Of a DNA stretch of 48,506 bases, positions 9,978 through 47,888 are shown piece after piece. The DNA lies in the UHGV virus genome UHGV-0991693; one strand, given 5' to 3'. The notes below the pieces were generated by a model. It did not search any database. It had not been told where the DNA came from and was given only the letters and a program-made list of their open reading frames with translations. How positions within the stretch are numbered: position 1 is the first letter of the stretch; each line of letters opens with the position of its first letter. The position numbers were made by a program, and so were the translations under genes. The stretch is from a virus.

Positions 9978-9994
9978 CACCGTGAACAAGGTTC
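9978..9994 (-). promoter_or_regulatory. Copy A of the 17-bp late-operon motif CACCGTGAACAAGGTTC, upstream of the portal gene
   Basis: Exact 17-mer shared with copies at 13946, 46997 (1 mismatch) and 47872. It reads GAACCTTGTTCACGGTG on the coding (minus) strand, containing the GAAC-3-GTTC dyad. Confidence 0.5.
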
Positions 9995-10001
9995 GCATAG
10001 G

Positions 10002-10033
10002 GCAAAAGAAAAGCCCCCGTTTCCGGCGGGGGC
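10002..10033 (-). terminator. Terminator after terL (hairpin GCCCCCG/CGGGGGC plus T-run on the minus strand)
   Basis: On the minus strand this reads GCCCCCGCCGGAAACGGGGGCTTTTCTTTTGCC. It directly precedes motif copy A. Confidence 0.5.
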
Positions 10034-10151
10034 TCTGTTTGCTAGTTCGCTTCTGCGATTGTTCTGTTTGCCGCCCGTGCCGAGACGATAGCCAGCCTCA
10101 TGCGCGACAGTCCGGCGTCAATCCAGTTGTAGGCGTCGTACGACTGGACGC

Positions 10152-11633
10152 TCAACGCGCTGGACAGCCTGTCGACATCCCCCGGATGCGCGGCGGCTGA
10201 AGGATGGCGGGGTTGATGCACATGGGCCGCTTGGTATCGAAATCGCGCAGCGCCTGCGTGGTGGCGTCCACTTGGTCGTCGTGGGGCGCACCGGGGAACT
10301 GTGTCAGTTCCGCGACGTACTCCCGCGCCCACGGGCAATGCTCAGGGTGCGGGAGCAGGACGTTCCCAGCCTCGAAGAACGTAGTCACAGCATGGGCGCG
10401 AGCCGTCTTGCTGCCGTCCGGCTCCACGGGGATGATACCGGGCACGGCATGTTTCAGCGCGTCGATAACCGCCGGGCCGTTGGCCTTATCCTCCACCAGC
10501 TTACGGGTTGCGCCGGGCCATTTAGCGGCGAGCGCCCGGAACGCGGCCACCGTATCCGTAAAGCCCATACGCCGTCGTACCTGATCCAGGAGGTAGAGGG
10601 CGGCCCCCTTGCGGCCCCACACCTGCCCCACAACAAAGTCGGTATCGTCGCCGTCCTTGAATGTCATGTCCCACGAGATAAGGAGCTGGTCGAACTGCTC
10701 CGGAAGGTCTTTGGGGAGCCAGAACCGCAGCCACTCGGATTTGAAGATGGCGCCGCCGTCTGGCGTAGGCCGCTGCTGGTACAGGGCTTCCCAGTCGCGT
10801 GTGCCGAGGGCTTTCTTAATGGCAAGAAGCTGCTCCAACGGGTAACGTTCCGGGTGCAAGGCTTCCCCGGCCTTACGATGTGGCTCGTCCGCCATGGCGA
10901 TGGCGGGGAAGTCCACCACACGCCAGTGGTCACCCTCCCCCCGTGCGGCGGCCTCAAGCAGCCGCCCTGAGAGGTCAGCCATGTGCCAGCGAGTGTTGAT
11001 GATGAGCACCCCCCCGCCGGGCGCGAGGCGCGTGTACAGCGTGGACGTGTACCAGTCCCAGACGTTCTGGCGGATGGTCGGGGAATCGGCGGACGCCCGG
11101 TCCTTGAACGGGTCGTCGACAATGACGATATGCCCGCCCATGCCCGTGATGCCGCCGCCCACGCCAGCGGAACGGTAGCATCCAGCGTGCCCCACTACCT
11201 CGAATATATCCGAGTTGCGGAGGTATGAACCGTTCCCCACGGTGCGGATGTTCTTGCTGTATAGCGCCGTGCCGGGAAAGAGTTCCCGGTATTCCGGACT
11301 GTCGATGACGCGCTGAACGTCGCGGTTCATGCGCGAGGACAGGTCGGCGGCGTAGCTCGTTGAAATGACGGATAGATCGGGATAGCGGCCCAAGGCGTAA
11401 GCCGGGAAGCGGCGGGAGGCGAGCTCGCTTTTCCCGTGGCGGGGCGGCATGGTCAGCATGAGGCGCGGGGAACGCCCGGCTACGACATCGGCAAGGAAGG
11501 CGTCTAGCTCGGAACAGATTTCCTCATGCACCCATCCCATGCGGTAGCCGGGCATGGTGTAGCGCACGAAGGCCGCGAGACAGCTCCGGGCCAACGCCTT
11601 CCGGATATCGGAAAGGATGGCTGGGCTATTCAT
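10152..11633 (-). CDS. terL: Terminase large subunit
   Basis: 493 aa. Walker A LTMPPRHGKSE. C-terminal nuclease region with acidic residues. Overlaps the terS stop/start (ATGA). Confidence 0.8.
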   Translation of the reverse strand: MNSPAILSDIRKALARSCLAAFVRYTMPGYRMGWVHEEICSELDAFLADVVAGRSPRLMLTMPPRHGKSELASRRFPAYALGRYPDLSVISTSYAADLSSRMNRDVQRVIDSPEYRELFPGTALYSKNIRTVGNGSYLRNSDIFEVVGHAGCYRSAGVGGGITGMGGHIVIVDDPFKDRASADSPTIRQNVWDWYTSTLYTRLAPGGGVLIINTRWHMADLSGRLLEAAARGEGDHWRVVDFPAIAMADEPHRKAGEALHPERYPLEQLLAIKKALGTRDWEALYQQRPTPDGGAIFKSEWLRFWLPKDLPEQFDQLLISWDMTFKDGDDTDFVVGQVWGRKGAALYLLDQVRRRMGFTDTVAAFRALAAKWPGATRKLVEDKANGPAVIDALKHAVPGIIPVEPDGSKTARAHAVTTFFEAGNVLLPHPEHCPWAREYVAELTQFPGAPHDDQVDATTQALRDFDTKRPMCINPAILQPPRIRGMSTGCPAR

Positions 11634-12165
11634 GATCCGGCGTTTTGAAGGCTTCCTTCGTCAGGCGAAGCAGCTCGTCCGGGGAGAGATGCGAGAGATC
11701 CACCGGACGCTGATACAGCGAACCGTCGGATGAAGTATGATCCAACGCAGCTTTGTCCACGATGCCCCACGCCTTGCGCTCTCCCTCCTGCCGGATCTTG
11801 ATCGTCTCGGCGGTAATCTTGGCGAGCTTGGCCTTGTCGAAGCTGCCTTCGGACAACGCCTCATCCATAATGGACTGATGCCGATCCCACTCCCGCTGGT
11901 GGCGGGTGATGACAGCGGCCTTGGCTTCGGCGGCGCGGTCCAAGGCTTCGGCCTTTTTTTGAGGGTTGCAGCCTGCAACCACGCCCACAACCTTGGCCTC
12001 TGCCATGCGGTTCACGGTGCCGGAAATATCCTGCACCCAGCCTTCGGCCCGGATGCGCTTTTGGATGGCCGTCCGGCTCACACCGTACCGCTTGGACAGA
12101 TCGGACTGGCTCGCCCCTACTTCGTACTCGGCACGGATGGATTCCCAATCAAATCGTGCAGCCAT
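11626..12165 (-). CDS. terS: Terminase small subunit with N-terminal HTH
   Basis: 179 aa. HTH SQSDLSKRYGVSRTAIQKRIRAEGW. Immediately upstream of and overlapping terL. Confidence 0.6.
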   Translation of the reverse strand: MAARFDWESIRAEYEVGASQSDLSKRYGVSRTAIQKRIRAEGWVQDISGTVNRMAEAKVVGVVAGCNPQKKAEALDRAAEAKAAVITRHQREWDRHQSIMDEALSEGSFDKAKLAKITAETIKIRQEGERKAWGIVDKAALDHTSSDGSLYQRPVDLSHLSPDELLRLTKEAFKTPDHE

Positions 12166-12610
12166 CGTCGCACCCCCCGTTTGGCCTGCGTTCTTCCTGT
12201 TCTCTCAAAAAACTTTCATGCCCTCGTTTCTCCTCTTCCTCGGGCCTCGTACTGTGCGCCAAATCATACTCCCAAGGGGCCCTTTTCCGCTTCAATTGCG
12301 GACACCCGTGACCGGTCTGATAGGACACCGGTGGCCGGTCCACTCTTCCAGTACTCTTTCCAGAACCAGCAACCAAAACCGAGGAGCGTCCGGTTGCCAC
12401 GGAGACGAACACTCCGGAGGATACGAGCGCAGCAATGGCCCTGCGCACTGTTCGCGCAGACACGCCACACTCCTGCGCGACGGTTTCCTGCCGCACGCGG
12501 ATTTTTCCGGTCCGCTTGTCCATGTGTAGGGCGAGAACCATACCTACAAGCTTTTCCGTTGGAAGAAGTTCCGCCTGAAGAAGCTGACGCTGGAGCGCGT
12601 AGGTGTCCAT
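12149..12610 (-). CDS. Winged-helix/HTH DNA-binding protein of the late operon
   Basis: HTH segment VAQECGVSARTVRRAIAALV. Overlaps the terS start. Confidence 0.4.
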   Translation of the reverse strand: MDTYALQRQLLQAELLPTEKLVGMVLALHMDKRTGKIRVRQETVAQECGVSARTVRRAIAALVSSGVFVSVATGRSSVLVAGSGKSTGRVDRPPVSYQTGHGCPQLKRKRAPWEYDLAHSTRPEEEEKRGHESFLREQEERRPNGGCDDGCTI

Positions 12611-12627
12611 TCATGCACAGGGCATTC

Positions 12628-12900
12628 TCAAAACATCCGGCCCACAATGGCACCGATGCAACCGCCAACTCCCGAGAGGGCGGTTATAATGGCGATGGCC
12701 GTTGTCCTGCTGCCCTGCCGCTCCCCGCGTTCCCGCGCGCACGTCTCGGCCATAACCGAGATATGATCCTCAAGATCCCGAATGCGTTTTCCATGATCGC
12801 GGAGTTGCGTGAGTATCGCGTCGTCAAGACGCTGGTTGAGCGCTTCGAGCAATGCCTCAATGCGGGAAAGCCGGGATTCATGGTCCAGTGTATGCTCCAT
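12628..12900 (-). CDS. Small coiled-coil protein with a C-terminal transmembrane anchor (lysis-associated; spanin or antiholin candidate)
   Basis: 90 aa. Hydrophobic C-terminal tail TTAIAIITALSGVGGCIGAIVG. Adjacent to the lipoprotein gene in the lysis cassette. Confidence 0.4.
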   Translation of the reverse strand: MEHTLDHESRLSRIEALLEALNQRLDDAILTQLRDHGKRIRDLEDHISVMAETCARERGERQGSRTTAIAIITALSGVGGCIGAIVGRMF

Positions 12901-13223
12901 CAGCTTCCAGCCTCAACGCCCTTGATCCACAGGAGCAAGTTCCCGGCCTCCCCAGCAGGCAGATGCACCCACTCGCCGGGCTCGGTAAACGTCTCGCCGC
13001 CGTAGCGATATGACCAGCCGTCAGTCACGACGGCCCCCGGCGTCAGCGGAGCCGGGCTTGTCGCGGCGGTCGGTTCCGCCCATCGAGCGCACCCACTCGC
13101 CGCCAACGTCATCACGAACAGCAGCGCGATCAGCCTCGCGGCGTTCGCCGTACCGTTGACGCAGCCACAGCTTGATAAGTTCAACGAGCGAGGTGAAGAA
13201 CTCAAGGACGGCCCGCACATCAC
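12900..13223 (-). CDS. Putative lipoprotein (o-spanin-like) of the lysis cassette
   Basis: Hydrophobic stretch LIALLFVMTLAASGC ending in a lipobox-like Cys. Pro-rich mature part. Its start overlaps the holin stop. Confidence 0.4.
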   Translation of the reverse strand: MMCGPSLSSSPRSLNLSSCGCVNGTANAARLIALLFVMTLAASGCARWAEPTAATSPAPLTPGAVVTDGWSYRYGGETFTEPGEWVHLPAGEAGNLLLWIKGVEAGS

Positions 13224-13510
13224 TTCCCCGTCACGGCCTTGACTTCGGCCTTCACGGTTTCGGACTTGCCGTCAGCCACGGCGCCCTTGTTCTGTCCGAA
13301 GTGCGCGGCAAGGGCGTGGGCCCAGCGGTACACGGCGGCATACAGCCCCGCCGGTTCCTTGGGGACAGGCATCCATACGGTGGCCACGGCGCACAGGCCG
13401 CACACGGTCATGACCACGCTCAGGGCGGTCACGAGCCACGCCGCATCGGGGTACTGCGCGGAAAGGCCCATCAAGGTCGAAAGGATGAAATCAATCACGG
13501 TCGCTTCCAT
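13220..13510 (-). CDS. Holin (two predicted TM helices)
   Basis: Start placed at MEATVIDFILSTLMGLSA, forming an ATGA overlap with the endolysin stop. Two hydrophobic helices and a charged C-terminus. Confidence 0.5.
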   Translation of the reverse strand: MEATVIDFILSTLMGLSAQYPDAAWLVTALSVVMTVCGLCAVATVWMPVPKEPAGLYAAVYRWAHALAAHFGQNKGAVADGKSETVKAEVKAVTGK

Positions 13511-13898
13511 CAGTACTTGCCTCCATGCTGGTAAAAGGCCACGTCGCGCGGCTTGTCGGGGTCGTTGTCCACATGGATCCACGTCGGAGCCAGCTCGACG
13601 CGCCGGAACCCGGCCTCAAGCAGGGCTTGCAGCATGACGAAACGGGAATGGGAATCCACGCAGCGGATATCCACGGCATAGCCGCGAGTGTGCGCGGAGG
13701 TGGGCATGCCACCGACCGCCTTGTTGTGCTTCGGGCAGCGGTAGGCGGAAGAAAGGGGGAACGGGATACCCGCCAGATCACGGGCCTCATCGAGCATCTG
13801 GAGCAGATCGGCGTCCATCTTCTCCATGCCCGCGCCGCACCCGCATTTGCAGCGGAACTCGAGGGGAGAGAAGTGGCGCAAGGGAAGAACAGCCATAA
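13510..13898 (-). CDS. Endolysin, peptidase M15 family (zinc D-Ala-D-Ala carboxypeptidase-like / L-alanyl-D-glutamate peptidase)
   Basis: FSPLEFRCKCGCG...SAYRCPKHNKAVGG...SAHTRGYAVDI matches Peptidase_M15 His/Asp zinc ligand motifs. Start at the internal ATG (MAVLPLRH...) with a GGAGGA RBS. Confidence 0.65.
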
Positions 13899-13945
13899 AA
13901 AATATCCTCCTGCGTCCACTCTCGCACAAGAGAATAGGGGGAGGA

Positions 13946-13962
13946 CACCGTGAACAAGGTTC
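13946..13962 (-). promoter_or_regulatory. Copy B of the 17-bp late-operon motif, upstream of the lysis operon
   Basis: CACCGTGAACAAGGTTC lies 47 nt upstream of the endolysin ATG and abuts the Mor gene stop. Confidence 0.5.
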
Positions 13963-14330
13963 TACAACAGCCGATATTGCTGCTGTGGTTCCGGGTTCCC
14001 GCAAAGCTGCTTTTTGAGCCGACGGACGTACCTGGTGGTCACGCCAAGGGCTTCGGCGATGGCGTCCGGCTTCTCCCCTGCTTCCAGACGGGACAGGATA
14101 CGTCCTTTGAACGGTTCACCACGGCGCAGGTTGGGCACGACGATCTGCATCCCCCCAAATTCGGTGCAGAGGGCCGCCATACGCTGCCGACCAAGCAACT
14201 CCAGAAGAAAACCTGTGGGCTTCCGGGGGATAAAGTATGAACGTCCACCGCACTGTGCGCAGAGGATGACCGCCCCCACGTCACCGATGGCCTCTGACAG
14301 TTCGAACTGGCTCACCCACACGTCACTCAT
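13962..14330 (-). CDS. Mor/C-family transcription activator (Mu late-gene activator C-like)
   Basis: C-terminal HTH PDAIAEALGVTTRYVRRLKK plus an upstream dimerization-like region, characteristic of the Mor family. It is positioned immediately upstream of the lysis genes, as C is in Mu. Confidence 0.65.
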   Translation of the reverse strand: MSDVWVSQFELSEAIGDVGAVILCAQCGGRSYFIPRKPTGFLLELLGRQRMAALCTEFGGMQIVVPNLRRGEPFKGRILSRLEAGEKPDAIAEALGVTTRYVRRLKKQLCGNPEPQQQYRLL

Positions 14331-14625
14331 GAGCACCAACCTTGTGTTCCCCAAGCCATAGCCGCAGTGCGGTCACAGCTACATCGAGGGCTTCGTCGCG
14401 GATACGCTCCGGAGTTTCGTGCTCAACGGCGTGTACAAGCTCACGGTACTCCCCCCCGATAACGCCGAGCGCATGGTATTTGCCCTCCGCGAAAACAGGG
14501 TGCTTCCCGCGTGCTTCCGACAGCCGCTGCATGAGTGCCGCAAGAGCCTGTTCACCAAGTATCGTGATGTCGATGTTATGCACTGGTAGCCTCCTTGTGG
14601 GCGTCAAGCTCGTCGGTATAGGCAC
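14323..14625 (-). CDS. Hypothetical protein (possibly an all-alpha MazG-like NTP pyrophosphohydrolase)
   Basis: 100 aa. Contains acidic E-x-x-E/D segments (GEYRELVHAVEHE...IRDEALDVAV). The start is uncertain. Confidence 0.3.
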   Translation of the reverse strand: MPIPTSLTPTRRLPVHNIDITILGEQALAALMQRLSEARGKHPVFAEGKYHALGVIGGEYRELVHAVEHETPERIRDEALDVAVTALRLWLGEHKVGAHE

Positions 14626-14758
14626 AGACGCCGTACCCGTGATGAGTTGCCCTGTCGCAGTCGTGGACGGGGTAGGCGTAGCGGATCATGAGGAGGCGGC
14701 TAACTCCGGTGTAGGCTGTGATGGCCTTCCAGCCGAGCAGCAATTTCCGTTCATTCAT
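14576..14758 (-). CDS. Small hypothetical protein (possible DNA-binding)
   Basis: Start at MNERKLLLGWKAITAYTGVSRL, directly after the RusA stop. Confidence 0.3.
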   Translation of the reverse strand: MNERKLLLGWKAITAYTGVSRLLMIRYAYPVHDCDRATHHGYGVCAYTDELDAHKEATSA

Positions 14759-15186
14759 TACGCTTCCTCCTGTGTGTACACGGCTACCTCCCAATGCGGG
14801 ACGGCGGCGTAGCGTTTTGAACAGCGTAGGGCCACCACCTGCTTATCATCCCTCCAGAACCCCGCGCGCGTCATGGCGTCTTTGAGCTGCTTCGCCATGT
14901 TGTCGAGGTCCGGCTTCTTCGTATGGGCGATTTCGCCGCGTAACATGGCCTCTCGTTGTTTTTTCGAGGTCGATGCAGGTATGGGCATCCCCGCGATGAA
15001 TTCGAGTACGAGCGGCCCATCTAAAGGCTTTTCCGGGGCGCGCTTCGAAAGAAGATCATCAAGCACGGCTTCCGCGCTCTTCTGCCCGGCAGACTTGTAA
15101 GCCACGCTGTGCCCACAACGGACGGTGTGCCGGACTCGGGCCTGTGCCGTGGGCGTGCAGGACAAGGTGAAGCGTAAGACCGTCAT
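14758..15186 (-). CDS. rusA: RusA-family Holliday junction resolvase
   Basis: KKPDLDNMAKQLKDAMTRAGFWRDDKQVV contains the RusA catalytic DLDN motif. Start at MTVLRF. Confidence 0.7.
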   Translation of the reverse strand: MTVLRFTLSCTPTAQARVRHTVRCGHSVAYKSAGQKSAEAVLDDLLSKRAPEKPLDGPLVLEFIAGMPIPASTSKKQREAMLRGEIAHTKKPDLDNMAKQLKDAMTRAGFWRDDKQVVALRCSKRYAAVPHWEVAVYTQEEA

Positions 15187-15602
15187 AACGCCGCCTTCCT
15201 GTTGTCCGAGGTTCTCGGCTGTTTTAAAATGCGCCACACCTGCCGTTCGGAAAGCCCGTGCAGCGTGGCGAGCCTGGCGACAAGCGCTCTTTCACTCAGC
15301 CCCTTACGAGCCAACTCGTCCCGCTCGGCGTTGATGTCCATGTCCCGTGCGCGGATCTTCGCCCGGCGCAAAGTGGGGATATAGATTCTCGTACCGCCAT
15401 AGGTGTGCAGAAAGTCGGAAAGGGCATCCTGCCCCAAGAAGGCGCACAATTCCCGAGTTAGCTGCGTCTTCCGGCTTTTGGCGGGAATAATAAGAGTTAT
15501 ACCCGCGAAGCGTTCAATCATGTGCCGGACAAAGGGCTTTCCGAAACGGTCGGACATGTCTTGCAGTGTTTCCGGCAACGATTCTTCCCTGTACGTGCTC
15601 AT
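15183..15602 (-). CDS. Second Mor-family/HTH transcription activator-like protein (middle activator candidate)
   Basis: C-terminal HTH LSERALVARLATLHGLSERQVWRILK. Start at MSTYREE. Confidence 0.45.
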   Translation of the reverse strand: MSTYREESLPETLQDMSDRFGKPFVRHMIERFAGITLIIPAKSRKTQLTRELCAFLGQDALSDFLHTYGGTRIYIPTLRRAKIRARDMDINAERDELARKGLSERALVARLATLHGLSERQVWRILKQPRTSDNRKAAL

Positions 15603-15673
15603 CACACACTCCTTTTCGTCAAACACCCCTGCACACGCTCCGGGGCCGAAGATTTCACAGTACCGTGGGCACA

Positions 15674-17083
15674 TCACAAATCGTTTTCCTGTACCGCAGG
15701 ACGTCCGGCCCATGCTTCACCCTCGGTAAACTCAGAAAAAGCTTTTTCGAAACGCAAGAACGATGCACCTGTTCCCGTGCTGCGGGATTTCCCGACGATG
15801 CATTTCACGTCTGGTCTGGCATCAGCCCTGTCCAGATCGCGGGTGTGCAGCAAAATGATGATGTCCGCGTCCTGCTCAATCGCTCCAGACTCTCTGAGAT
15901 CGGAAACACGGGGTTCCCGCTTGCCTTCTTCGCTTGAGCGGTTAAGCTGAGAAAGCAGGAGTACAGGAACTTGCAGATCAAGGGCCATTTGCTTAAAGGA
16001 ACGTGACATCTCCGCAACTTCTCGTTCTCTGCTGGTGCTTTTCTCGTCAGGATGCAAAAGCTGGAGATAGTCCACTACGATGAGCCCTAAATCCTTGATG
16101 CCCCGCGCCAGCCTGCGGACTTCGCGGGGGCACATGGGCACAGTTGACTTTTCCACGATGGACAAGGGAAGGGCTTCAAGCTGCCCTATGGCGGCGTCAA
16201 TGGCTCCACGGATCTGCGGCGTGACGCCCATCCCTTCACGGAAAAACCGTCCGTCGATACGCCCTACGCGGGAGATGAGACGATGCCCAAGGCTTTCGTC
16301 GCTCATCTCGCATGAGACAAAGAGCACACCCATTCCGCGCCATGCGGCACCCAACGCCACATTTGCGGCTAAAGCCGTCTTTCCAAGGCCGGGACGAGCG
16401 GCAACGACGATCAATTCCCCCGGCATGAATCCCCCACGCAAAACGCTGTTCAAGCTTTTCCACGGAGTCTGAACCCTGCGCAGCGATTGCGGATTATCTA
16501 GCTTTGCCCGAATGCGGCCCATGAGGTTCGACATGGTTACGGATTCCTGAATCCCTCCCGAAGCTTCAACAAGCTTGCGGGCACGGTCAGCGATGTATTC
16601 GGAGTCCACGCCGTAAACCGATGCTTCCGCAGCAATTTCGAGCAATCCGGCATGGAGTTCCGCCCGGCGATGTTCATCGGCAAGCTTTCGGGCCAAACTC
16701 TCGGCATGGCCTTTCAGCCCCCACGCGGACGTAGAAAGTTCAGCCATGCGCGCCATATCCGGGGCGGGCCAAAGTTCAGGATCTTTCGCCCAACGCGATT
16801 GCATCTGCGTTGCCAACGCGGTGAGATTGGGACGTTGACCGGACTGACGGAGCAAATCGAGAGCCACGGCAAGCGGCGCAGCTTCCGGCGTCACAAAACA
16901 ACCTGCGGGGCAGATATCGAGTACATCCCCAAGCAAATAGGCATCCCGGTTCATGCCCGAGAGAGTCGCGGCAATGACGCTGGACTCAAGCTGTGCACGG
17001 GCTTCCGAGGCCATGACGGGCTTTGGCGCAGGAGCGTTCTGCCTGCGGGCCATGATGCCGCGTTCAAGCGTCTGAACTGCCAT
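15674..17083 (-). CDS. dnaB: Replicative DNA helicase DnaB
   Basis: Walker A GELIVVAARPGLGKTALA, Walker B LIVVDYLQL, and a DnaB N-terminal domain. Start set at MAVQTLERG with a GGGAGGTG RBS. Confidence 0.85.
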   Translation of the reverse strand: MAVQTLERGIMARRQNAPAPKPVMASEARAQLESSVIAATLSGMNRDAYLLGDVLDICPAGCFVTPEAAPLAVALDLLRQSGQRPNLTALATQMQSRWAKDPELWPAPDMARMAELSTSAWGLKGHAESLARKLADEHRRAELHAGLLEIAAEASVYGVDSEYIADRARKLVEASGGIQESVTMSNLMGRIRAKLDNPQSLRRVQTPWKSLNSVLRGGFMPGELIVVAARPGLGKTALAANVALGAAWRGMGVLFVSCEMSDESLGHRLISRVGRIDGRFFREGMGVTPQIRGAIDAAIGQLEALPLSIVEKSTVPMCPREVRRLARGIKDLGLIVVDYLQLLHPDEKSTSREREVAEMSRSFKQMALDLQVPVLLLSQLNRSSEEGKREPRVSDLRESGAIEQDADIIILLHTRDLDRADARPDVKCIVGKSRSTGTGASFLRFEKAFSEFTEGEAWAGRPAVQENDL

Positions 17084-17084
17084 T

Positions 17085-40202: not shown

Positions 40203-42011
40203 TCAGTACCCGAATGCGCTGTCTGCCTGCGCGGTCTGATTACGAAGTGCCGGAACCACTCCTTCGGCCACCCCCTCCGCATCCGTAGCCTGCGTGTAGA
40301 CCTTGACCTCACCCACATTGGTGGTTGACGTCATCTGACGAGAATTGTTGACGTTGCTCACGTTTCCCGGACGCGCATCCCCGGCGCGCACCTGCGGCGG
40401 CAGAATAGACGGGCGGACATCACCAACCCGCATCGAATCGGCGACGCCGCCTGGCTTGGCCTCGGCCTTCGTTTCTTCCGGGCGCGAAGACTCATCGCCG
40501 CCGAGCCAATCCTTGATCCAGTCGGGAAGCAAGTTGTAGAGCTTCTGGGCTACCCAATTCAGCATTTCGACAAGCACATCGTTGATTTTGGAGATGCCTC
40601 CCCAGATCGTTTTGAGGGCTTCGATAACGCCTTTTCCGTCCAGCGTAAGAACGGAGTTGAAGAGCTTGGCGACCCCTGAAAGCGCATCCCAGACGCCCCC
40701 GAGGATACTTTTGATGCCTTCCCAAATAGCCTTGAAACGGGCCCCGATTTCGTCGCCGGTTCCGAACATCGCCCAGAGCCCGGAAAGTGCGGATTCTCCG
40801 CCGTTGATGTAGGTAATGAGATCGTCGACAACCAGCGCGATTGCGCCGATGGCCGCAATCAACGGCGTAAACGGGGCAATCGCAGCCCATGCCGCCGTCG
40901 CCATCGCGGTCAGGGCCGGAAGCATGAGCGTCGTAATGACCCCGGCCAACGCCGTAAAGAAGACGATCACGAACTGCTTGTTTTCTTTCACCCACCCGAG
41001 GAGGTCGCCGAGCAGGTTCGTCAAAAACGTGATCGCAGGGGAGACGGTGCTGGCAAAAAGGGCTGAGATGGCCTCCCATGCGTCATTGAGCCGCTGCTGC
41101 GCCTCCCGTTGCTTCTTCGCGTTTTCGATGTCCTGCTTGCTGTAGATGGCTTGAGCCTTCTGGACTTTCAGAAGATCCTCAATCCCTTTGCGGCCTTTAA
41201 GAATGAGCGGGATGGTCTTTTCGTCGAAGCCTATCTGCGTGAGGATTGAGGTCGCTTTCTGGCGGTCGATTTTTGACGTGGCGTCGGAGAGACGAAGGAG
41301 TCCTTCTTCAAAGGAAACGGCCTTCCCTTTCGCATCCGTGAAGCTCACCCCCAAGTCTTTGGTCGCGTCTTTGAGCGGCCCCGAGTCGTGCAGGATGAGA
41401 TCCTGCATCCAGTCGCCCAGATCCATGAACCGGGTCGAAAGCTCCTCGGCGTCAACCCCGGCGGAGGCTGCCGTCCTTTGCCATGCCTGCCAGTCTTCAA
41501 TGCTCATGCCGAGCGCGTCCGAAGTCTTCTCAATAGCCTGAGCCTGCTCGTAATACTGCGCTATGGAGCTTTTCAGGATGGAAACGCCGCCGATGACGGC
41601 GAGGGCCTGCGCTGCCACGCTCTTGAGCCGTTCAAAGCCAAACGCGCCTTTGTCCGCCGCGTCTTCCAGCGAAACGCCCAATCTTTTCGCGGCGGCATCA
41701 AGGGCCTCAAGACGTTCTTTTGCCGCTCCGGTGCGGATAAGCTCCTTGCGCATCCGCTGATACTCTTTCGTAACCTCACTGATTTCGCGGCCTTTTTGCA
41801 CGGCTTCCTCAAAAGCGGCCTGCAACGAAGAGGCGGCATCGGCAGACTGGCCAAGCCCTTGGGCCCCCTTGACGCCTGCGTCATATGTCGCGCGCCCCGC
41901 GTCAACGGCTGCGGCCTGCACGCCGTCCAGTCCTTTTTGGGCGTTCTGCACTTGAGCTTTGAAAGCCCCTGCGGAGAGGATGAGGGAAACGACGAGTTCA
42001 CCTGCGTTCAT
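40203..42011 (-). CDS. Tail tape measure protein
   Basis: 602 aa, alpha-helical, with a hydrophobic segment LAGVITTLMLPALTAMATAAWAAIAPFTPLIAAIGAIALVV. Follows the G/GT chaperone genes. Confidence 0.75.
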   Translation of the reverse strand: MNAGELVVSLILSAGAFKAQVQNAQKGLDGVQAAAVDAGRATYDAGVKGAQGLGQSADAASSLQAAFEEAVQKGREISEVTKEYQRMRKELIRTGAAKERLEALDAAAKRLGVSLEDAADKGAFGFERLKSVAAQALAVIGGVSILKSSIAQYYEQAQAIEKTSDALGMSIEDWQAWQRTAASAGVDAEELSTRFMDLGDWMQDLILHDSGPLKDATKDLGVSFTDAKGKAVSFEEGLLRLSDATSKIDRQKATSILTQIGFDEKTIPLILKGRKGIEDLLKVQKAQAIYSKQDIENAKKQREAQQRLNDAWEAISALFASTVSPAITFLTNLLGDLLGWVKENKQFVIVFFTALAGVITTLMLPALTAMATAAWAAIAPFTPLIAAIGAIALVVDDLITYINGGESALSGLWAMFGTGDEIGARFKAIWEGIKSILGGVWDALSGVAKLFNSVLTLDGKGVIEALKTIWGGISKINDVLVEMLNWVAQKLYNLLPDWIKDWLGGDESSRPEETKAEAKPGGVADSMRVGDVRPSILPPQVRAGDARPGNVSNVNNSRQMTSTTNVGEVKVYTQATDAEGVAEGVVPALRNQTAQADSAFGY

Positions 42012-42261
42012 TGAATCTGCTCCAGAGGCGTTGGTTGTGGCCGTCCACGGCGATGATTTCTAGCATCTCGTAGGCATCGGACAGGCCGTACACTGTTTGC
42101 ATCTCGTGCAGCGTCGCGAGGTTCCGGCTTACCGGGATGCCGACGCATCCGGGGAGGTTTGCGTAGTCCCGGAGCCCGAGGGGTTGATGATCTGCGACAG
42201 GCGGGAGGTCAAGCCCTCGCCGCCCTGCAAAAAATCCAGACAGACGGCGATAGCCTCCCAA
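41998..42261 (-). CDS. Tail assembly chaperone frameshift extension (T portion of a G-T fusion)
   Basis: -1 frame relative to the upstream chaperone ORF. The overlap contains the slippery heptamer T-TTT-TTG. Confidence 0.55.
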   Translation of the reverse strand: MGGYRRLSGFFAGRRGLDLPPVADHQPLGLRDYANLPGCVGIPVSRNLATLHEMQTVYGLSDAYEMLEIIAVDGHNQRLWSRFNERR

Positions 42262-42638
42262 CGCAGGCGGTAGATCGTGCCCACATCCTCGACATGGGCG
42301 TCGAGGTTTTGCGGGGTAAGCCTGATGACGTCATCGGGCTTGCCGGGGTTCGGGACGCGGTAGATCTGTCCGAGAAGCTCGTCATAGAGCGGTTCGGCCT
42401 GTTCCCACCGGAGCCCCGAGAGCCCCCGGAGCCCGGCGGAAAGCAGCGCGGCGGTGTTCGAAGACGCTGAAAGCGTCCGGATGTCGGCGGGCATCTCGGA
42501 ACCGAAGACGGCGAGCAGCGCACGGGCGCCCCATTTTTCCAGCTTGGTGACGGGCATTTCCTTGACCTTGAAGGTCTTCCCGGCGTCGCGGCCCTTGTCG
42601 ATGGCAATGATCTTTTCGTTGAGCATGACGGCCTCCAC
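42129..42638 (-). CDS. Tail assembly chaperone (gpG-like)
   Basis: 169 aa, between the tube and TMP genes. Confidence 0.55.
   Translation of the reverse strand: MEAVMLNEKIIAIDKGRDAGKTFKVKEMPVTKLEKWGARALLAVFGSEMPADIRTLSASSNTAALLSAGLRGLSGLRWEQAEPLYDELLGQIYRVPNPGKPDDVIRLTPQNLDAHVEDVGTIYRLRWEAIAVCLDFLQGGEGLTSRLSQIINPSGSGTTQTSPDASASR
42228..42235 (-). promoter_or_regulatory. Programmed -1 ribosomal frameshift slippery site (GAT TTT TTG)
   Basis: X XXY YYZ heptamer inside the overlap of the two chaperone ORFs. The -1 frame reads through ...FFAGRRGLDL..., matching the downstream ORF. Confidence 0.55.
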
Positions 42639-42641
42639 GGT

Positions 42642-43091
42642 TTAAAGCGGGCTCGCGGTCCACTGGTCGAAGGTGATGACGAAGGCGCTCGCCTGCAAGG
42701 TCTGAGCGGCGTTGGGGCTGGACTGCACGGAGGTGAGGCCGCCCCGCTTCCCGGTGATCTTCCGGTTGATGCTCGGCATGGCGAACTCGGCATTGCAGAG
42801 CATCACTTCCCGGGCGGTTTCCTGATACGTCGCCCAGTCTTCCATGATCTGACGGCTCGGACTGTCCGCCGCGAGAGTGATTGTGACTTCCTTGTTGGTC
42901 GGCACCCACCCGAAGGAGGTATGCCCGTCAACGCCCTTTTCCGCGACGACGGGGGTATTCGTGGCCACGCTGACCATTGCGTCGGTGCTGAACCCCTCGA
43001 TCTGCACGGGACTGTCGTAGAGCCCGGGAACCGTCAGGAAAAGCGTGCAATTTGCCGCTGTAATCGTCATGTTGCCGAAGTTGTCAGCCAT
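42642..43091 (-). CDS. Tail tube protein
   Basis: 149 aa, directly after the sheath gene. Confidence 0.6.
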   Translation of the reverse strand: MADNFGNMTITAANCTLFLTVPGLYDSPVQIEGFSTDAMVSVATNTPVVAEKGVDGHTSFGWVPTNKEVTITLAADSPSRQIMEDWATYQETAREVMLCNAEFAMPSINRKITGKRGGLTSVQSSPNAAQTLQASAFVITFDQWTASPL

Positions 43092-43102
43092 GTTTTACCT
43101 CA

Positions 43103-44608
43103 TCACTGAATGGCCGTGGCGGGCATGACGATTTGCTGCACGCTGCCGCCGTCCATGTAGTAGAATTTGCATTTGGGGGACTGGCGCTGTCCGCGCACGG
43201 TCGCGCCGGGGTCCTTGACCTGCATGTACCAGCCCTGCGTTTCAAGCGTCTGGGAAACGTCCAGCCCGATTTCCGCGAGGAGCTGCACCTTTTGGGTGTT
43301 CGAGAGGGTCACGCCCGTGCGGATAGCCCCGAAGTCGAGAAACCGCGTGATGGTGTCGAGGCAGGCCGTGCGGATCATGCCGTAGCCGCTCTCGTTGTAG
43401 GGGATGCAACTTACGGCCTTGAACAGATCAAGGAGGTTAAGCTGGAGGCCGTCTTTGATGGCGATGGCGTCAAGGTAGGTGTCGAGCCAGCCCCATTTGC
43501 CGGAAACCTGCCCATTCTGGAAAAACTTGAACTGGCTGGAGGCCGTGGCGAAGTCCGCATAGCAGTTGTAGCCATTGGCGATCAGCGCATCATAGTTCTC
43601 GTCGTTGTCGCAGGTTACGGCAAGCCCTTCGCCCTGCTTGAATGCGAAGGTGAGCCGTCCGTTCGTCTCTTCAAAGTTGATTGAGGCCGCCGTGCCCATG
43701 ACCCACGCGGCGAGTTCAGGCGTGTTGAACACGGGAACCGTCCCGTCGAGTTCGAGCACCTTGGCAATCTGATACCCCGCCGAGGCTGTGGAGCCCGCGA
43801 CCTGCGCGGCGTTGTCGGTATCCCACATCACATAGACAAAACGGGTGTCATACCCGGCGCACCACTGGGCGAGCGCGATCTTGTCGTCAAGCTCTGGCTC
43901 CCATACCGTGGAGAACGTCACCCAATCGCGGGCGTACAGGAGCACGTTGGTCATACAGTCGGGGAGCGTCTGGCCAGCCATGCCTACGGACTGGACGGCA
44001 CCGGACTGTTCGGTGAGCAGAAGCAGTGCGCCGAGGTCGGTCCCGGCTTCCGGCGGCGTCGGAAAGGCCACGGCGGAACTTGCCCCGGTCGTCGGGCTGT
44101 CGATCTGGAACGCCCCGGTCTGGCTGGAGTACGTCACCTTCGCCCCGGTAGCGCCCGCCGTCGTGAGCGCGGTCTGGATCGCCTCCGCAACCTGCGAGAA
44201 GCTGGTCGCAGCGGACAAATCCACGGAGGAAAGCGTGTGCGGCGTGTTGTCGATGGAAATGACCATCGCGCCGTTGGTGACGGCCTGCAACACGGCGATA
44301 TTGCCCGTATACTTCGCGCCGCGCAGCCATGCGCCCACGGCCTCGCCGTTGTACCGGGCAAAGAAGATCTTGTCCGGGAGGCTCGTCGTGTTCACGTAGC
44401 CGGAGAAGTACATGGAAGCCATGCTTGCCTCTTCCGAAAGCGAGCCGAAATAATTGGCCACGGCCTGCGCGCTGGCGAACTGCACGACTCTGCCTGCGGG
44501 CAAAAGCTCGGACTGCGAAAGGATGAGCCCGGCGAAGGTCAGGCCCGGCGTGCCGCCTTCGATGATGCGGGGGATGATTTGAACCAGTTTGTCGGCATTG
44601 ACGCTCAT
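43103..44608 (-). CDS. Contractile tail sheath protein
   Basis: 501 aa. Position and size match Mu gpL-type sheath proteins. Confidence 0.7.
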   Translation of the reverse strand: MSVNADKLVQIIPRIIEGGTPGLTFAGLILSQSELLPAGRVVQFASAQAVANYFGSLSEEASMASMYFSGYVNTTSLPDKIFFARYNGEAVGAWLRGAKYTGNIAVLQAVTNGAMVISIDNTPHTLSSVDLSAATSFSQVAEAIQTALTTAGATGAKVTYSSQTGAFQIDSPTTGASSAVAFPTPPEAGTDLGALLLLTEQSGAVQSVGMAGQTLPDCMTNVLLYARDWVTFSTVWEPELDDKIALAQWCAGYDTRFVYVMWDTDNAAQVAGSTASAGYQIAKVLELDGTVPVFNTPELAAWVMGTAASINFEETNGRLTFAFKQGEGLAVTCDNDENYDALIANGYNCYADFATASSQFKFFQNGQVSGKWGWLDTYLDAIAIKDGLQLNLLDLFKAVSCIPYNESGYGMIRTACLDTITRFLDFGAIRTGVTLSNTQKVQLLAEIGLDVSQTLETQGWYMQVKDPGATVRGQRQSPKCKFYYMDGGSVQQIVMPATAIQ

Positions 44609-44623
44609 TGCGCCCTCCTTTTG

Positions 44624-45109
44624 CTATGCCAGCGGATGTACGGAAAGTTCCGCGTCGGTAAAAGTATCCATCTCAACGTGTTCAACGCGGTTTGCCTGAA
44701 CCAGCACGTTGAGCATGAAGCGGGGGTTGTACTGCTCGTCACCTTCCACCTGCGTCATGTCCTGCGGGTCTTCGACGTACAGGGGGGCAATCCCGTACGT
44801 TTGCAGGAAGCGGCACCCGACGCCGTCGCGCAGGAGCGTTGCGAGCGTCTGGGCACGGTCGGCGGCGGTCGGGCCGTAGACGTCAAGCTGGACACGGCGG
44901 CGCTGCGGCTGCACGATGGCCTCTCCGCCGCACTCGGTCTGGTGCAGGTTCGTCGAGAGGCGCGTCATGCTCATCGGGGTGACGAGCACGTAGTTTTTCG
45001 CCTTCGGCTTGCTCACGCGGTTGACGTAGCCGCGTACAACGACGACGGAATCGCCGAGGTAGCGTTTGCAGAAGTCCCCAAGGGCCTGCACGAGGATGCC
45101 GTCACTCAT
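44624..45109 (-). CDS. Tail completion / terminator-like protein
   Basis: 161 aa, immediately upstream of the sheath gene. Confidence 0.35.
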   Translation of the reverse strand: MSDGILVQALGDFCKRYLGDSVVVVRGYVNRVSKPKAKNYVLVTPMSMTRLSTNLHQTECGGEAIVQPQRRRVQLDVYGPTAADRAQTLATLLRDGVGCRFLQTYGIAPLYVEDPQDMTQVEGDEQYNPRFMLNVLVQANRVEHVEMDTFTDAELSVHPLA

Positions 45110-45533
45110 CGTCTCCCCCTTTGGGCGGTTCCGTGGCCCCGACTTCCGGCGGCGCGGTTTCCCTGAGCTTCACGCACCGGATTTTCGTCCAGCCCGCCGT
45201 GGGATTCCAGCGCTCCAGAACTTGATCTACCTGCCACTCGGCGCCATCCCAGTAGAGAAGATCGCCGCCCTGCTCCGCCGGACGATCGAGGGCCGACCAG
45301 TCCCCTGAAAGATAAAAGTCGTGCCAGATCGTGTTCTGGCGCTGCTGCACGAGGAATTGCAGCGTCTTGTCGGCGACAGGCTGAGGCTGCGCCATGACTT
45401 CCACGGCGGGGGCCCATGCCGGGACCTGCTCATACTGCGCGTTTACGGTGAAGCCTGTGGAGACGAGAATCACGACCGACTGGAAAGGGTTCACGATGCC
45501 GATAAGCGGACGCACAAGTTCATGGAGATTCAT
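45102..45533 (-). CDS. Neck / head-tail joining protein
   Basis: 143 aa, overlapping neighbours. Confidence 0.35.
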   Translation of the reverse strand: MNLHELVRPLIGIVNPFQSVVILVSTGFTVNAQYEQVPAWAPAVEVMAQPQPVADKTLQFLVQQRQNTIWHDFYLSGDWSALDRPAEQGGDLLYWDGAEWQVDQVLERWNPTAGWTKIRCVKLRETAPPEVGATEPPKGGDDE

Positions 45534-46090
45534 CTTTTGACTACCTCGTAATCGATGGATTTGAGCAGGCTTCCGGAATCGATGAGCGTCCCCTTTCCCG
45601 CGCCCTTGGCGTTTTTGCGGCGCTTGGTGGATTCGGCGTTGTCCGGGGGCATATTGCTCTTAATCGTCGCCTGAATGTCGTCTGCCATGCGGCGTCCCAC
45701 AAGCCGCATCGCCTCTTTCGGCGTCCGTCCGGCTTCCAATGCTTCCGCGAGGTTATCGCACCATGCGTCTGCCTTGGCATCGAGCGTTGAGCGCAGGAAA
45801 GGCCGGGAGGGGATGGTGACGGTGTGGGCTTTGACCGACGCATCCTGCGCAAAATCACTTTTGCCCTTCTTCACGAACCGATTCCCGACGCTGCCGTCAC
45901 GCTTCCGCTTGAAGTACAAGGTTTGCGTCCGCTCAGGGATTTCGATTGTTGCGCCGTATTCGTTGTACGCCGCATACTCTGCGACGGGAGTACCACCTTC
46001 GCCCCGCGTCGCATTTTCGAGCACCCCGGCCTTCACGACGATATCGGGGGTAATGTACCGCTTGAGCAGCTTTTCGAGTTCTCCGGACAC
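45530..46090 (-). CDS. Virion morphogenesis / head-tail connector protein
   Basis: Start at MVSGELEKLL. 186 aa. Confidence 0.35.
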   Translation of the reverse strand: MSGELEKLLKRYITPDIVVKAGVLENATRGEGGTPVAEYAAYNEYGATIEIPERTQTLYFKRKRDGSVGNRFVKKGKSDFAQDASVKAHTVTIPSRPFLRSTLDAKADAWCDNLAEALEAGRTPKEAMRLVGRRMADDIQATIKSNMPPDNAESTKRRKNAKGAGKGTLIDSGSLLKSIDYEVVKR

Positions 46091-46092
46091 CA

Positions 46093-46524
46093 TTACCCCC
46101 ACGGATGCCAATACCGGGCGGCATAGTAGCGCCCGCCTACGGCATAGGGCTGGATGGCCTGCCAAAACGTCTGTCCGCACGGCGTCTGCGCGTAAAAGGC
46201 TTTCCCGGTGTTCTGGGGCACGGAGAAGCTGATGCTGACAGTTCCTTCCGTCGCCGAGGCCACTGGCCCGGCCTGCCCCATCGGCCACAAGGCCAGCGTC
46301 GCCAGATGGCAAACGAGGAGATACAGAAGCGTCTTGCGGATCATGACGCCGTGGGCCGGGTCGTAGGGAACCGGGGATGAGTTTGTGTTGTCCAAGAGCA
46401 GACAGGCGACGTCGAATGCCTGCCGAAGCTGTGTATCGGTCAGGAGGGGCTGCCCGGTCTTCGGATCGACGAAGCGCGGATAGGCCTCCCGGAACTCCTG
46501 CGGGTCAAAGACAACAACAGCCAC
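46093..46524 (-). CDS. Head-tail connector protein (DUF4054-like)
   Basis: 143 aa, a family common in Mu-like head-tail modules. Confidence 0.35.
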   Translation of the reverse strand: MAVVVFDPQEFREAYPRFVDPKTGQPLLTDTQLRQAFDVACLLLDNTNSSPVPYDPAHGVMIRKTLLYLLVCHLATLALWPMGQAGPVASATEGTVSISFSVPQNTGKAFYAQTPCGQTFWQAIQPYAVGGRYYAARYWHPWG

Positions 46525-46527
46525 GGG

Positions 46528-46941
46528 TTAGAACCCCACCTTGCTCTGGAGCGGTTCGGTCTGCGCCTTGGGGTCGTTCTCCACATCCACGGGCTCCAGC
46601 CCGTTGCGCAGTTCCGCCCTTTCGTCGGCCTCGTCCACGGCGTCGGCCTTGCGCGCCTGCGCGAAGATGAGCCCAGACTTGAAGATTTCCATGTGCGGGC
46701 CATAGGTCTTTTCAATGTACGCCCAATCGTCGGCGTTCACCCGCGTCAGCCCAAACGCGCCCACGGGCAGCACGCCCTTTTCCTTTCCGCGCAGGCTGGC
46801 GGCGTTGCCTTCGATGAGCACTTTGCGTCCGTCGGGCATGGGGAACGTGATCCCGGTCGTCCGGTTCAGGGCAACCATCACTGTATCCGTCTTCGTCGCC
46901 TGCGTTGTTTCCGGGGCGGTATTCTTTTTGGGTCTGGCCAT
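46528..46941 (-). CDS. Hypothetical protein, first gene of the head-tail/tail late operon
   Basis: Start set at MARPKKNTAPE with a GGAGGG RBS. Motif copy C lies ~55 nt upstream. Confidence 0.4.
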   Translation of the reverse strand: MARPKKNTAPETTQATKTDTVMVALNRTTGITFPMPDGRKVLIEGNAASLRGKEKGVLPVGAFGLTRVNADDWAYIEKTYGPHMEIFKSGLIFAQARKADAVDEADERAELRNGLEPVDVENDPKAQTEPLQSKVGF

Positions 46942-46996
46942 ATCTCTGTATCCCTCCGTTGTTTTGGTCATCATGGCAAAAGAGCCGGGACGAAAT

Positions 46997-47013
46997 CACC
47001 GTGAACAAAGTTC
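46997..47013 (-). promoter_or_regulatory. Copy C of the 17-bp late-operon motif (CACCGTGAACAAAGTTC)
   Basis: 16/17 match. Upstream of the head-tail joining/tail operon, 3 nt downstream of the Bro-N stop. Confidence 0.5.
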
Positions 47014-47015
47014 GG

Positions 47016-47819
47016 CTATGCGGCACGGCGAAGGCGGTACTTGCCCAGCATGTTCAGGTCGTTTTTCAGGGACAGCCGGAAGGCTTCGATCACGTCGACG
47101 TGGTACGCCTTCACGCTCCCGAAACGGCTGTCCTCGATTTCCCGGATTTCGTAATCCATACGGCGGGACATATCGGAAAGCTTGCGTCCTGCGACGGAGT
47201 ACGCGGCTGGCGTATCTGCGAAGACGTCAAGGAACCACGGGATGCCCTTCACGGACTTGTAGTCCCTGCCCCGCCCAAGTTCGTTCTCAAGAGCCGCAGC
47301 CTTGCGTACGGCTGCGGAGGCGGTTGCCATTGCGGTGGCCTCGCGGCGTGAACCGATTTCGGCCTTGGTGCGGATTGCATCGTCGCGCTCGGCTTCGATG
47401 CGCCTGATGGTGTCCTGCGCGACCAGCACGGCGCGGGCAAGGATGGCTTCGGGGGTATCGTCCAGCTTGGCTATCAGGTAGCCGCCCGTCTTACGGATGG
47501 AGGGGATGACCTCATGCGTCACCCACCGCTTGAACGCCTTGGCTTCGGGCTTGCGGGAACGCAGGATGAGGGAATACAGGCCCGGTTCTGAAATGATACG
47601 GCTATCGCGTCGCAATCCTGTGGAATCATTAAGAGTGTGGATAATATCGACAATAGGGCGTTGCTCGTCGTGCTCCAGAATGTCCGGCAGATCCCGCGTC
47701 TCCGTCCCGAGGACGGCGCATACATCCCGCGCCACAAACCACGGCTCACCCTTGTGCTCGATCACGCGAAGGGAACCGAACTTTTCATGCTCAAAAAGAG
47801 CCAAGGGAGAATTTTCCAT
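47016..47819 (-). CDS. Bro-N/KilA-N domain antirepressor
   Basis: MENSPLALFEHEKFGSLRVIEHKGEPWFVARDVCAVLG...GLYSLILRSRKPEAKAFKRWVTHEVIPSIRKTGGY. GGAGGTG RBS. Start at the internal ATG of track ORF 47016..47972. Confidence 0.7.
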   Translation of the reverse strand: MENSPLALFEHEKFGSLRVIEHKGEPWFVARDVCAVLGTETRDLPDILEHDEQRPIVDIIHTLNDSTGLRRDSRIISEPGLYSLILRSRKPEAKAFKRWVTHEVIPSIRKTGGYLIAKLDDTPEAILARAVLVAQDTIRRIEAERDDAIRTKAEIGSRREATAMATASAAVRKAAALENELGRGRDYKSVKGIPWFLDVFADTPAAYSVAGRKLSDMSRRMDYEIREIEDSRFGSVKAYHVDVIEAFRLSLKNDLNMLGKYRLRRAA

Positions 47820-47871
47820 CGCTGCACCTCCATAGTGTTTTGGAGATGATGCCGCATGGCGGCGTGGGGGC

Positions 47872-47888
47872 ACACCGTGAACAAGGTT
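47872..47888 (-). promoter_or_regulatory. Copy D of the 17-bp late-operon motif, upstream of the Bro-N gene
   Basis: Exact CACCGTGAACAAGGTTC 52 nt upstream of the Bro-N ATG. Followed (plus coordinates) by GGCAAAAGAAAAGCCCC-hairpin as in copy A. Confidence 0.5.

Follow-up and report, generated by a model that had tools for sequence, protein, structure and literature searches.

A 17-bp element stands before each block of late genes in virus genome UHGV-0991693, and our analysis of its 48,506 nucleotides (the whole stretch analysed, hereafter the window) suggests that it is probably the upstream activator-binding element of four late promoters of the host sigma-70 type. The activator is most likely MorA, a small protein that probably belongs to the Mor/C family and is encoded directly before the lysis genes. 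The annotation shows a temperate myovirus, and its host is Bilophila (Desulfovibrionaceae). A first-pass annotation of the window had proposed late promoters activated by Mor/C proteins within a cascade of two paralogs. The promoters of this proposal are favoured by the conserved upstream element, by a -10 at a fixed distance, by the lack of a -35 and by the family match; the two-paralog cascade is not.

A conserved element before the late operons

Scanning the window for the 17-mer (GAACCTTGTTCACGGTG on the minus, coding strand; CACCGTGAACAAGGTTC on the plus strand) returned four sites at zero or one mismatch, at 9978-9994, 13946-13962, 46997-47013 (one mismatch) and 47873-47889, all on the minus strand. 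A relaxed search found no site at two to four mismatches and only background at five, which leaves a clean gap. By chance, 0.15 matches would be expected at three mismatches or fewer, and none of 100 shuffles held four copies. Every copy is intergenic and lies on the strand of the genes downstream of it. These are the Phage_portal_3 portal gene (8400-9944), the M15 endolysin gene (13510-13896), the first gene of the neck/tail block (46528-46941) and the Bro-N gene (47016-47819), and we call the corresponding putative promoters P_portal, P_lys, P_tail and P_bro. The distance from element to start codon is 33 nt for the portal (ATG 9944), 49 nt for the endolysin (ATG 13896), 55 nt for the tail block (ATG 46941) and 53 nt for Bro-N (ATG 47819). 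The 17-mer contains the dyad GAAC-CTT-GTTC, a short palindrome of the form GAAC-N3-GTTC, and a further short palindrome, CAC-N-GTG. Most of what the first-pass annotation had said of the element agrees with these measurements, including the count of four, three of the coordinates, the common orientation relative to the downstream genes, the coding-strand dyad and the gaps (given as 33 and 47-55 nt, measured as 33, 49, 53 and 55); the fourth copy starts at 47873, not 47872. The scan for weaker variants that it had suggested as a check yielded only the same four sites, with none at two to four mismatches.

The exact 17-mer occurs in 62 stretches of IMG/VR, on about 40 contigs of related Bilophila phages and prophages. 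Together with the other loci that we fetched, this gave 131 instances at two mismatches or fewer, in 21 non-redundant contexts with about nine downstream genes: portal, endolysin or lysozyme, tail block, Bro-N, a 90-residue gene, a baseplate operon, alpA and diverged versions. Eleven of the 17 positions are invariant among the 131 instances, and changes are found only at positions 4, 5, 6, 13 and 17. The related phages carry at least four to five copies, always co-oriented, so the earlier remark that there are exactly four, like in Mu, describes a coincidence. One isolated exact match, in L057 (IMG/VR contig 2974763039_000001), was set aside as a chance occurrence without related context.

Downstream of the element, a 21-nt spacer is poorly conserved (0.1-0.8 bits per position) and is followed at +22 to +27 by a -10-like hexamer, CATnAT (C in 17, A in 16, T in 13, A in 15 and T in 16 of the 21 contexts). 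An A stands at +34 in 17 of the 21 contexts, and the tail, lysis and baseplate classes have TG at +19/+20, which makes theirs an extended -10. The layout is thus [C]GAACCTTGTTCACGGTG, 21 nt, CATnAT (often with TG before it), 6 nt and an A as putative +1, with no -35 hexamer; a scan for sigma-70 consensus promoters (-35/-10) found none at any of the four sites, and terminators lie just upstream of two. With +1 at position +34, the 17-mer would cover about -50 to -34 with its centre at -42, and the dyad (gC)GAAC-CTT-GTTC(AC) would be centred at -45, a placement that depends on the predicted start. Two other ways of dividing the sequence were tried and rejected. Readings as an extracytoplasmic-function (ECF) sigma promoter with GAAC as -35, or as a sigma-54 promoter, lack a conserved partner element at the required spacing. 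As -35 hexamers, TTGTTC or TTCACG would be separated from the -10 by 24-27 bp.

The sequence upstream of the element behaves very differently. The 5' flank is replaced by unrelated sequence from phage to phage, with at least four different flanks before the portal copy, and the 5' edge of the motif coincides with mosaic breakpoints. Given that these phages are closely related, the 17-mer might be a recombination linker between modules, or a product of recent common descent, without any role in transcription. We regard this as very unlikely. It leaves unexplained the co-orientation of the copies, the -10 at a fixed distance, the A at +34 and the placement before every late block, and also the persistence of the motif in the diverged L123, L145 and L075. 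Use as a linker is more likely to be a consequence of the conservation of the promoters.

The four putative promoters

The 17-mer of P_portal (9978-9994, minus) precedes every portal start of this type in IMG/VR. It is followed by the -10-like hexamer CATTAT (9951-9956, minus), with a predicted start at 9944. The portal ATG (9944-9942) begins 7 nt past this hexamer and has no Shine-Dalgarno sequence, whereas the other units have GGAGG. It lies exactly at +34 in all portal variants, including the diverged L123, while the six bases between hexamer and ATG vary freely, and independent gene calls in L063 and L064 also put the portal start at motif +34. Because the ATG is fixed at this position, the intervening bases are free, a Shine-Dalgarno is lacking and the gene calls concur, the portal-head mRNA is probably leaderless, starting at the A of the ATG. 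Upstream of the element, an intrinsic-terminator-like hairpin with a T-run (10010-10036, minus; ten pairs, seven of them GC, tail TCTTTTGCCC) probably ends the preceding lysis-terminase unit.

A similar arrangement is found at P_bro. Its 17-mer (47873-47889, minus) is followed by the -10-like CATCAT (47846-47851, minus; predicted start about 47839, Bro-N ATG at 47819), and directly preceded by an intrinsic-terminator-like hairpin, GCCCCGAAAGGGGC, with a T-run (47907-47920, minus); the same cassette stands before Bro-class copies in the relatives. The portal and Bro-N copies (A and D) share a 41-nt cassette (repeat D10 of our repeat scan) and have hairpins with T-runs at 10036-10010 and 47920-47907, as expected from the earlier description of a common cassette that includes a terminator. 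The hairpin of the Bro-N cassette (GCCCCGAAAGGGGC and T-run) also occurs in reverse at 30572-30604 (plus), after the plus-strand gene 30042-30572, where it looks like a reused terminator module (repeat I1).

P_tail carries the variant 17-mer GAACTTTGTTCACGGTG (46997-47013, minus; one mismatch, beginning with GAACTTTG), which recurs in 27 related instances. It is followed by an extended -10-like TGcCATGAT (46970-46978, minus), with a predicted start at about 46963 and the first ATG of the tail block at 46941. The element begins 2 nt past the Bro-N stop codon, with no terminator in between, and Bro-N transcripts therefore probably run on into the tail genes.

At P_lys (17-mer at 13946-13962, minus), the first base of the motif coincides with the G that closes TAG, the stop codon of MorA. 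This bears out the earlier claim that a candidate activator gene immediately precedes the lysis copy, as C does before lys in Mu. An extended -10-like TGcGAGAGT (13918-13926, minus; hexamer 13923-13918) gives a predicted start at about 13911, ahead of the endolysin ATG at 13896. In the relatives, the lysis copies have TGcGAGAGT, TGcCAGAGT or TGcGAGGGT one base closer to the motif. A terminator scan found none between MorA and this promoter.

Some relatives have promoters of this type at further places. One class (L054 at 1146, L017, L019 and L024) has an extra copy before a 90-residue gene, between the terminator and the Bro-N promoter. Another (L024 at 8035, L069 at 4682) has one before a sheath-initiator/baseplate operon. 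The window has neither.

A conserved sequence of about 20 bp before each operon recalls promoters of the T7 type or those of phage sigma factors, and the fact that two copies follow terminators might suggest an element acting at the RNA level, such as an antitermination site. Both ideas seem highly improbable to us. The annotated open reading frames (ORFs) include no RNA polymerase or sigma gene, the -10 is of the sigma-70 type and at a fixed distance, and a spacing of the ECF type comes without a conserved -10. The copies stand after the terminators, not before them, and the portal ATG is only 33 nt away without a Shine-Dalgarno.

MorA as the probable activator

MorA (13962-14330, minus; ORF 13962-14354) is a protein of 122 residues, probably a divergent member of the Mor/C family, and its gene is the last one before P_lys. 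It matches PHROG 836 ('late transcriptional activator') with E 1.2e-13 over nearly its full length, and Pfam HTH_23 with 25.2 bits. Its score against Pfam Mor, 21 bits, is under the cut-off of 24.9, while 10 of 13 close homologs match this family (best E 1.1e-7). The second candidate, MorB (15183-15602, minus; ORF 15183-15713), is a Mor-family protein of 139 residues encoded in the replication module and unlinked to the 17-mer. It matches Pfam Mor (PF08765) with 39.4 bits, PHROG 836 with E 3.8e-22, and Mu C in hhalign (77%, E 2e-5) over the beta-linker and helix-turn-helix (HTH). Of the two Mor/C-family activators named in the first-pass annotation, both proteins match the family at the level of PHROG 836, and MorB alone does so at the Pfam cut-off.

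The families of MorA and MorB align in hhalign over 102 columns (92.6%, E 4e-7), and the dimerisation region is common to both. A deep MorA profile (113 sequences) finds Mu Mor at 83.9% (E 8e-6) and Mu C at only 13%. Proteins of the Mor/C family have about 100-150 residues, with an N-terminal helical dimerisation domain, an xIYIP-like beta linker, a C-terminal HTH and a basic C-terminal half (PMC2582627). MorA fits this architecture in size, N-terminal helical domain, beta-strand linker and C-terminal HTH. Its AlphaFold model (predicted local distance difference test, pLDDT, 77.8) has helices at 8-27 and 40-58, strands at 31-34 and 61-64 (QIVVP) and three helices in 74-110. Counted from the sequence, 12 residues of the C-terminal half are basic and 6 are acidic. 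The Mor/C family is also known outside Mu, chiefly from prophages (PMC2582627), and the MorA profile finds about 1000 representative clusters. Searches of PDB sequences with single sequences or shallow profiles of MorA and MorB returned nothing meaningful. The helix GVTTRYVRRL of MorA is invariant among homologs down to 69% identity, and the HTH of MorB is likewise invariant among its homologs. Since it is invariant in both, conservation of the HTH cannot tell which of the two is the activator.

A search of the protein database and IMG/VR for more distant MorA homologs whose motif had changed along with the protein found only homologs at least 69% identical, all with the same 17-mer, and we therefore used the presence and absence of MorA and MorB instead. 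In every phage in which that region was seen, MorA is 97-100% identical and lies directly before the lysis copy. Behind homologs of 69-100% identity the arrangement is the same, with the 17-mer straight after the stop codon. MorB is missing from about half of the phages that have MorA and the motif, including contigs of 46-53 kb with four to five copies, and its slot in these phages is taken by a primase-helicase replication module. Conversely, contigs 166273 (58.8 kb), 165926 (53 kb) and 3300029433_000025 encode a MorB 96-97% identical to that of the window and have neither MorA nor the exact 17-mer. On this pattern of presence and absence, the motif goes together with MorA and its late module and is not linked to MorB, which belongs to an exchangeable replication module. 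MorA is also the only gene of a regulator family placed before the first late promoter, and it is the most likely activator to bind the 17-mer.

The alternative that MorB is the activator, alone or with MorA in a Mu-like Mor-to-C cascade or a hetero-oligomer, has some merit. MorB is the clearer member of the Mor family by Pfam score and by its match to Mu C, its HTH is invariant, it shares the dimerisation region with MorA, and the Mu activators bind as tetramers (bioRxiv 10.1101/2025.05.02.651988). It is nevertheless unlikely, because large MorA contigs with four to five copies do without MorB and nearly identical MorB proteins occur without the exact 17-mer. A cascade of the Mu type would also be expected to leave a middle promoter, and neither this nor a second repeated motif was found in the repeat scan of the window or in the alignment upstream of MorA. 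From MorB to MorA, the genes of L066 and similar relatives overlap without an intergenic gap, and directly before MorA there is nothing but the end of the gene ahead of it. The middle/late cascade with both paralogs, as put forward in the first-pass annotation, thus finds no support: many motif-bearing phages lack MorB, and others with MorB lack the motif and MorA.

Just before the MorA ATG, at 14331-14356 (minus), the sequence GGGGAACACAAGGTTGG resembles an inverted part of the dyad into which a single base has been added (GAAC-ACAAG-GTT). This sequence, which falls within the gene ahead of MorA, is kept in L170, L181 and L184, and could be a chance likeness or a weak autoregulatory site.

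Phages with MorB and the replication module that lack MorA (L196, i.e. IMG/VR contig 3300045988_166273, at 4606-5200, and also L193 and L197) offer a view of the same position in another state. The MorA slot of L196 encodes a 179-residue protein with weak DUF4096 and zinc-finger-like matches, and a hairpin (AGCTCCTA-N11-TAGGAGCT with a T-run) stands directly before an endolysin gene 74% identical to that of the window. This cassette may represent another scheme of late control, for example antitermination, swapped into the MorA slot.

A scheme for late control and its relation to known phages

We propose the following scheme. Early-right transcription would end with MorA, the last gene of that operon. 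MorA oligomers would bind the imperfect dyad and the adjoining GGTG, from -50 to -34, abutting the position of sigma region 4, and would recruit or activate the RNA polymerase holoenzyme at promoters that lack a -35 and have a -10 or extended -10. Once accumulated, MorA would switch on the endolysin-TerL, portal-major capsid, Bro-N and tail units. The terminators before two of the promoters would insulate these units from one another, the one at 10036-10010 ending the endolysin-TerL unit, and the portal unit would start, leaderless, at the A of its ATG.

The closest parallel is Mu. Its C site, an imperfect dyad of 16 bp, has its centre at -43.5; Plys needs the region from -52 to -34, and the late promoters have a -10 but no -35 (PMC2582627). 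The element bound by Mor is also 16 bp long and centred at -43.5, and Mor contacts in it two inverted repeats of 5 bp each (PMC4390567). Like Mu (Plys, PI, PP and Pmom by C; Pm by Mor), the Bilophila phage has a putative small two-domain activator of the Mor/C family and one element common to several late promoters, which have a recognisable -10 and no -35. The element lies just upstream of the -35 position and abuts it, at about -50 to -34 in the Bilophila phage. In both, the gene of the activator, a candidate in the Bilophila phage, directly precedes the endolysin promoter (C before Plys in Mu), and the order endolysin, small genes, HTH protein, TerS, TerL, portal and MuF is the same as in Mu from C and lys through gp26 and gp27 onward. 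The bases directly downstream of the dyad matter in Mu, and the GGTG at this place is invariant in the Bilophila phages. There are also differences. The annotation of the Bilophila phage has no transposase and its early region is lambda-like, its proteins are only remotely similar to Mu C and Mor, its host belongs to the Desulfovibrionaceae and its portal unit is apparently leaderless. Mu has a terminator between activator gene and Plys, and the Bilophila phage none. Its second paralog, MorB, stands outside any demonstrable cascade and is dispensable across relatives.

Several observations weigh against the proposed scheme. The perfect dyad has only 4+3+4 bp and is shorter than the Mu sites. 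The link between MorA and the Mu proteins is remote: the window protein itself falls under the Pfam Mor cut-off, its profile reaches Mor in the PDB (1rr7) at E 0.15 with LuxR/NarL-type HTH domains scoring better, and fold searches give generic HTH matches only. Presence and absence do not distinguish MorA from the rest of the late module, for example the gene for the HTH_36 protein at 12149-12610. The start sites and the assignment of the -10 are predictions, and the lysis -10 of the window (GAGAGT) is weak and one base out of place. With no terminator ahead of P_lys and a MorA stop codon that overlaps the first base of the motif, early transcripts could also read through into the lysis genes. 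Finally, in the genes that they share, the relatives are mostly more than 95% identical. The instances are therefore not independent of each other, and their independence has to be judged from the approximately nine gene contexts and the swaps of flanking sequence.

Late control by one small activator is also known from other phages. The late operons of P2 and 186 have a conserved dyad before a -35-less promoter, bound by the small activator Ogr/B, and the P4 satellite (Psid, PLL) carries the late promoter element of its helper and is switched on by the helper's activator. The Bilophila phages share with this system several late operons with a dyad before a promoter that lacks a -35, probably a single small activator, and an int-alpA island (see below) as the analogue of the satellite. 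They differ in that Ogr is a zinc-finger protein unrelated to Mor/C, with a site near -55 (TGT-N12-ACA), whereas the site of the putative Bilophila HTH activator abuts the -35. The likeness to Q and PR' of lambda lies in a late regulator that comes last in the early-right operon, directly before the lysis genes, and in the lambdoid early region; yet lambda has a single late promoter and antitermination, whereas here every late block would be read from a promoter of its own under activator control, and the terminators mark where units stop.

For Mu and P2, late promoters that need an activator and have an upstream element in common are textbook knowledge. The mechanism itself is thus known, and our general understanding of phage late control is unchanged; what is new is a well-defined case in an unstudied host with a lambda-like early region. 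Less usual are a portal unit that is likely leaderless, late-control cassettes that are exchanged in nature, and the island with alpA. If the scheme holds, late activation in the manner of Mu can be joined as a module to an early region of the lambda type, and relatives can exchange this module for a different late-control cassette before a homologous endolysin. Bilophila wadsworthia is a gut pathobiont that produces sulfide and whose phages have hardly been studied genetically, and the results provide a testable regulatory map for its common temperate phages, with four or five late promoters, one probable activator and predicted starts. The 17-mer and MorA could also provide work on Desulfovibrionaceae with an inducible promoter system that is orthogonal.

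Host and distribution of the element

Among species genomes (185,579 genomes, 596 Gb), the exact 17-mer was found in 93 stretches. Only B. wadsworthia ATCC 49260, two Bilophila metagenome-assembled genomes (MAGs) and one Desulfovibrio MAG have several exact matches. Outside Bilophila and Desulfovibrio, there are single matches in unrelated taxa, close to the number of about 70 that we estimate for chance. A megablast of positions 9000-20000 against GenBank phages gave no match. A random distribution of the motif in the host genome had been named beforehand as evidence against a promoter role; the motif is not scattered, and all exact copies in ATCC 49260 lie on one prophage scaffold, NZ_JNJP01000012, whose phage is nearly identical to that of the window and has five copies of the motif.

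These data bear on the possibility that the 17-mer is an operator, bound by a repressor or by a host factor (for example one resembling CRP/FNR) that gates the late genes. Short palindromes of this type are bound by many dimeric regulators. Still, we hold this to be quite improbable. The site is at about -50 to -34, off the -10 and the +1, a position typical of activators, and promoters without a -35 need help. In Bilophila genomes the exact copies occur in prophage or island contexts only, which argues against a site of a host regulon, and the element co-varies with a phage gene.

The island context deserves a separate description. In L088 (uncultured Bilophila sp. MGYG-HGUT-01277, NZ_CABKMN010000016.1), an exact 17-mer at 1224-1240 (minus), with a -10-like TAAGCT at +23 to +28, lies between a P4-type tyrosine integrase gene and a gene for a 76-residue AlpA-family protein, adjoined by host LysR and TRAP-transporter genes. 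The same junction of integrase, 17-mer and alpA is present in a second assembly (L211, 816-837), and the MGYG-HGUT-01277 MAG has a real prophage on another contig. A scan of metagenomes targeted at this island found one contig of 1.7 kb only. By analogy, one might speculate, as a tentative and somewhat doubtful idea, that the MorA-dependent promoter is a portable cassette captured by a satellite, an island resembling phage-inducible chromosomal islands (PICIs), which the late activator of a helper phage would switch on directly. In E. coli PICIs, the helper phage induces alpA, and the inducer was reported as an unknown factor (PMC6092414). The copy before alpA hints at a way in which satellites may sense their helpers and, if the idea is true, would be a cis-regulatory answer to the question of how helpers induce alpA in PICI-like elements of Gram-negative bacteria (PMC6092414).

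Genome layout

The late genes of the window form four units, all on the minus strand. The first (10152-13896) contains the M15 endolysin, three small ORFs, the HTH_36 protein and the small and large terminases. The second (3309-9944) has the portal, MuF-like, ADP-ribosyltransferase, DUF2213 scaffold-like, cement and major capsid proteins. The third (47016-47819) is the 267-residue Bro-N domain protein (Bro-N 78.5 bits; anti-repressor PHROGs), for which the name antirepressor given in the first-pass annotation goes no further than a family annotation. The fourth (33436-46941) has the neck, sheath, tube, tape measure, baseplate and fibre genes of a contractile myovirus tail like that of E217. 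The early region is lambda-like, with a CI-like repressor (20099-20875), a Cro-like protein (19791-20036), a CII-like protein, a replication organiser, DnaB and RusA. ERF, SSB and an integrase are encoded on the other arm of the genome.

Two further features lie close to the late units. The ADP-ribosyltransferase of the head operon (6771-7670, minus; ADPrib_exo_Tox 95 bits; PHROGs 'Alt-like RNA polymerase ADP-ribosyltransferase') is a toxin-domain protein whose gene overlaps the end of the MuF-like gene (7625-8407), and it may be an effector packaged in the virion and injected. Between the head and tail blocks, an island of low GC (about 48%) on the opposite strand (513-2852, plus, and 47990-48506) holds the ends of the window. 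It is probably a moron region. One of its products, of 356 residues, is endonuclease-like and has at its N-terminus a type I restriction HsdR domain (PHROG 4225, E 6e-114); another, of 413 residues, is the second Bro-N/anti-repressor-like protein of the window.

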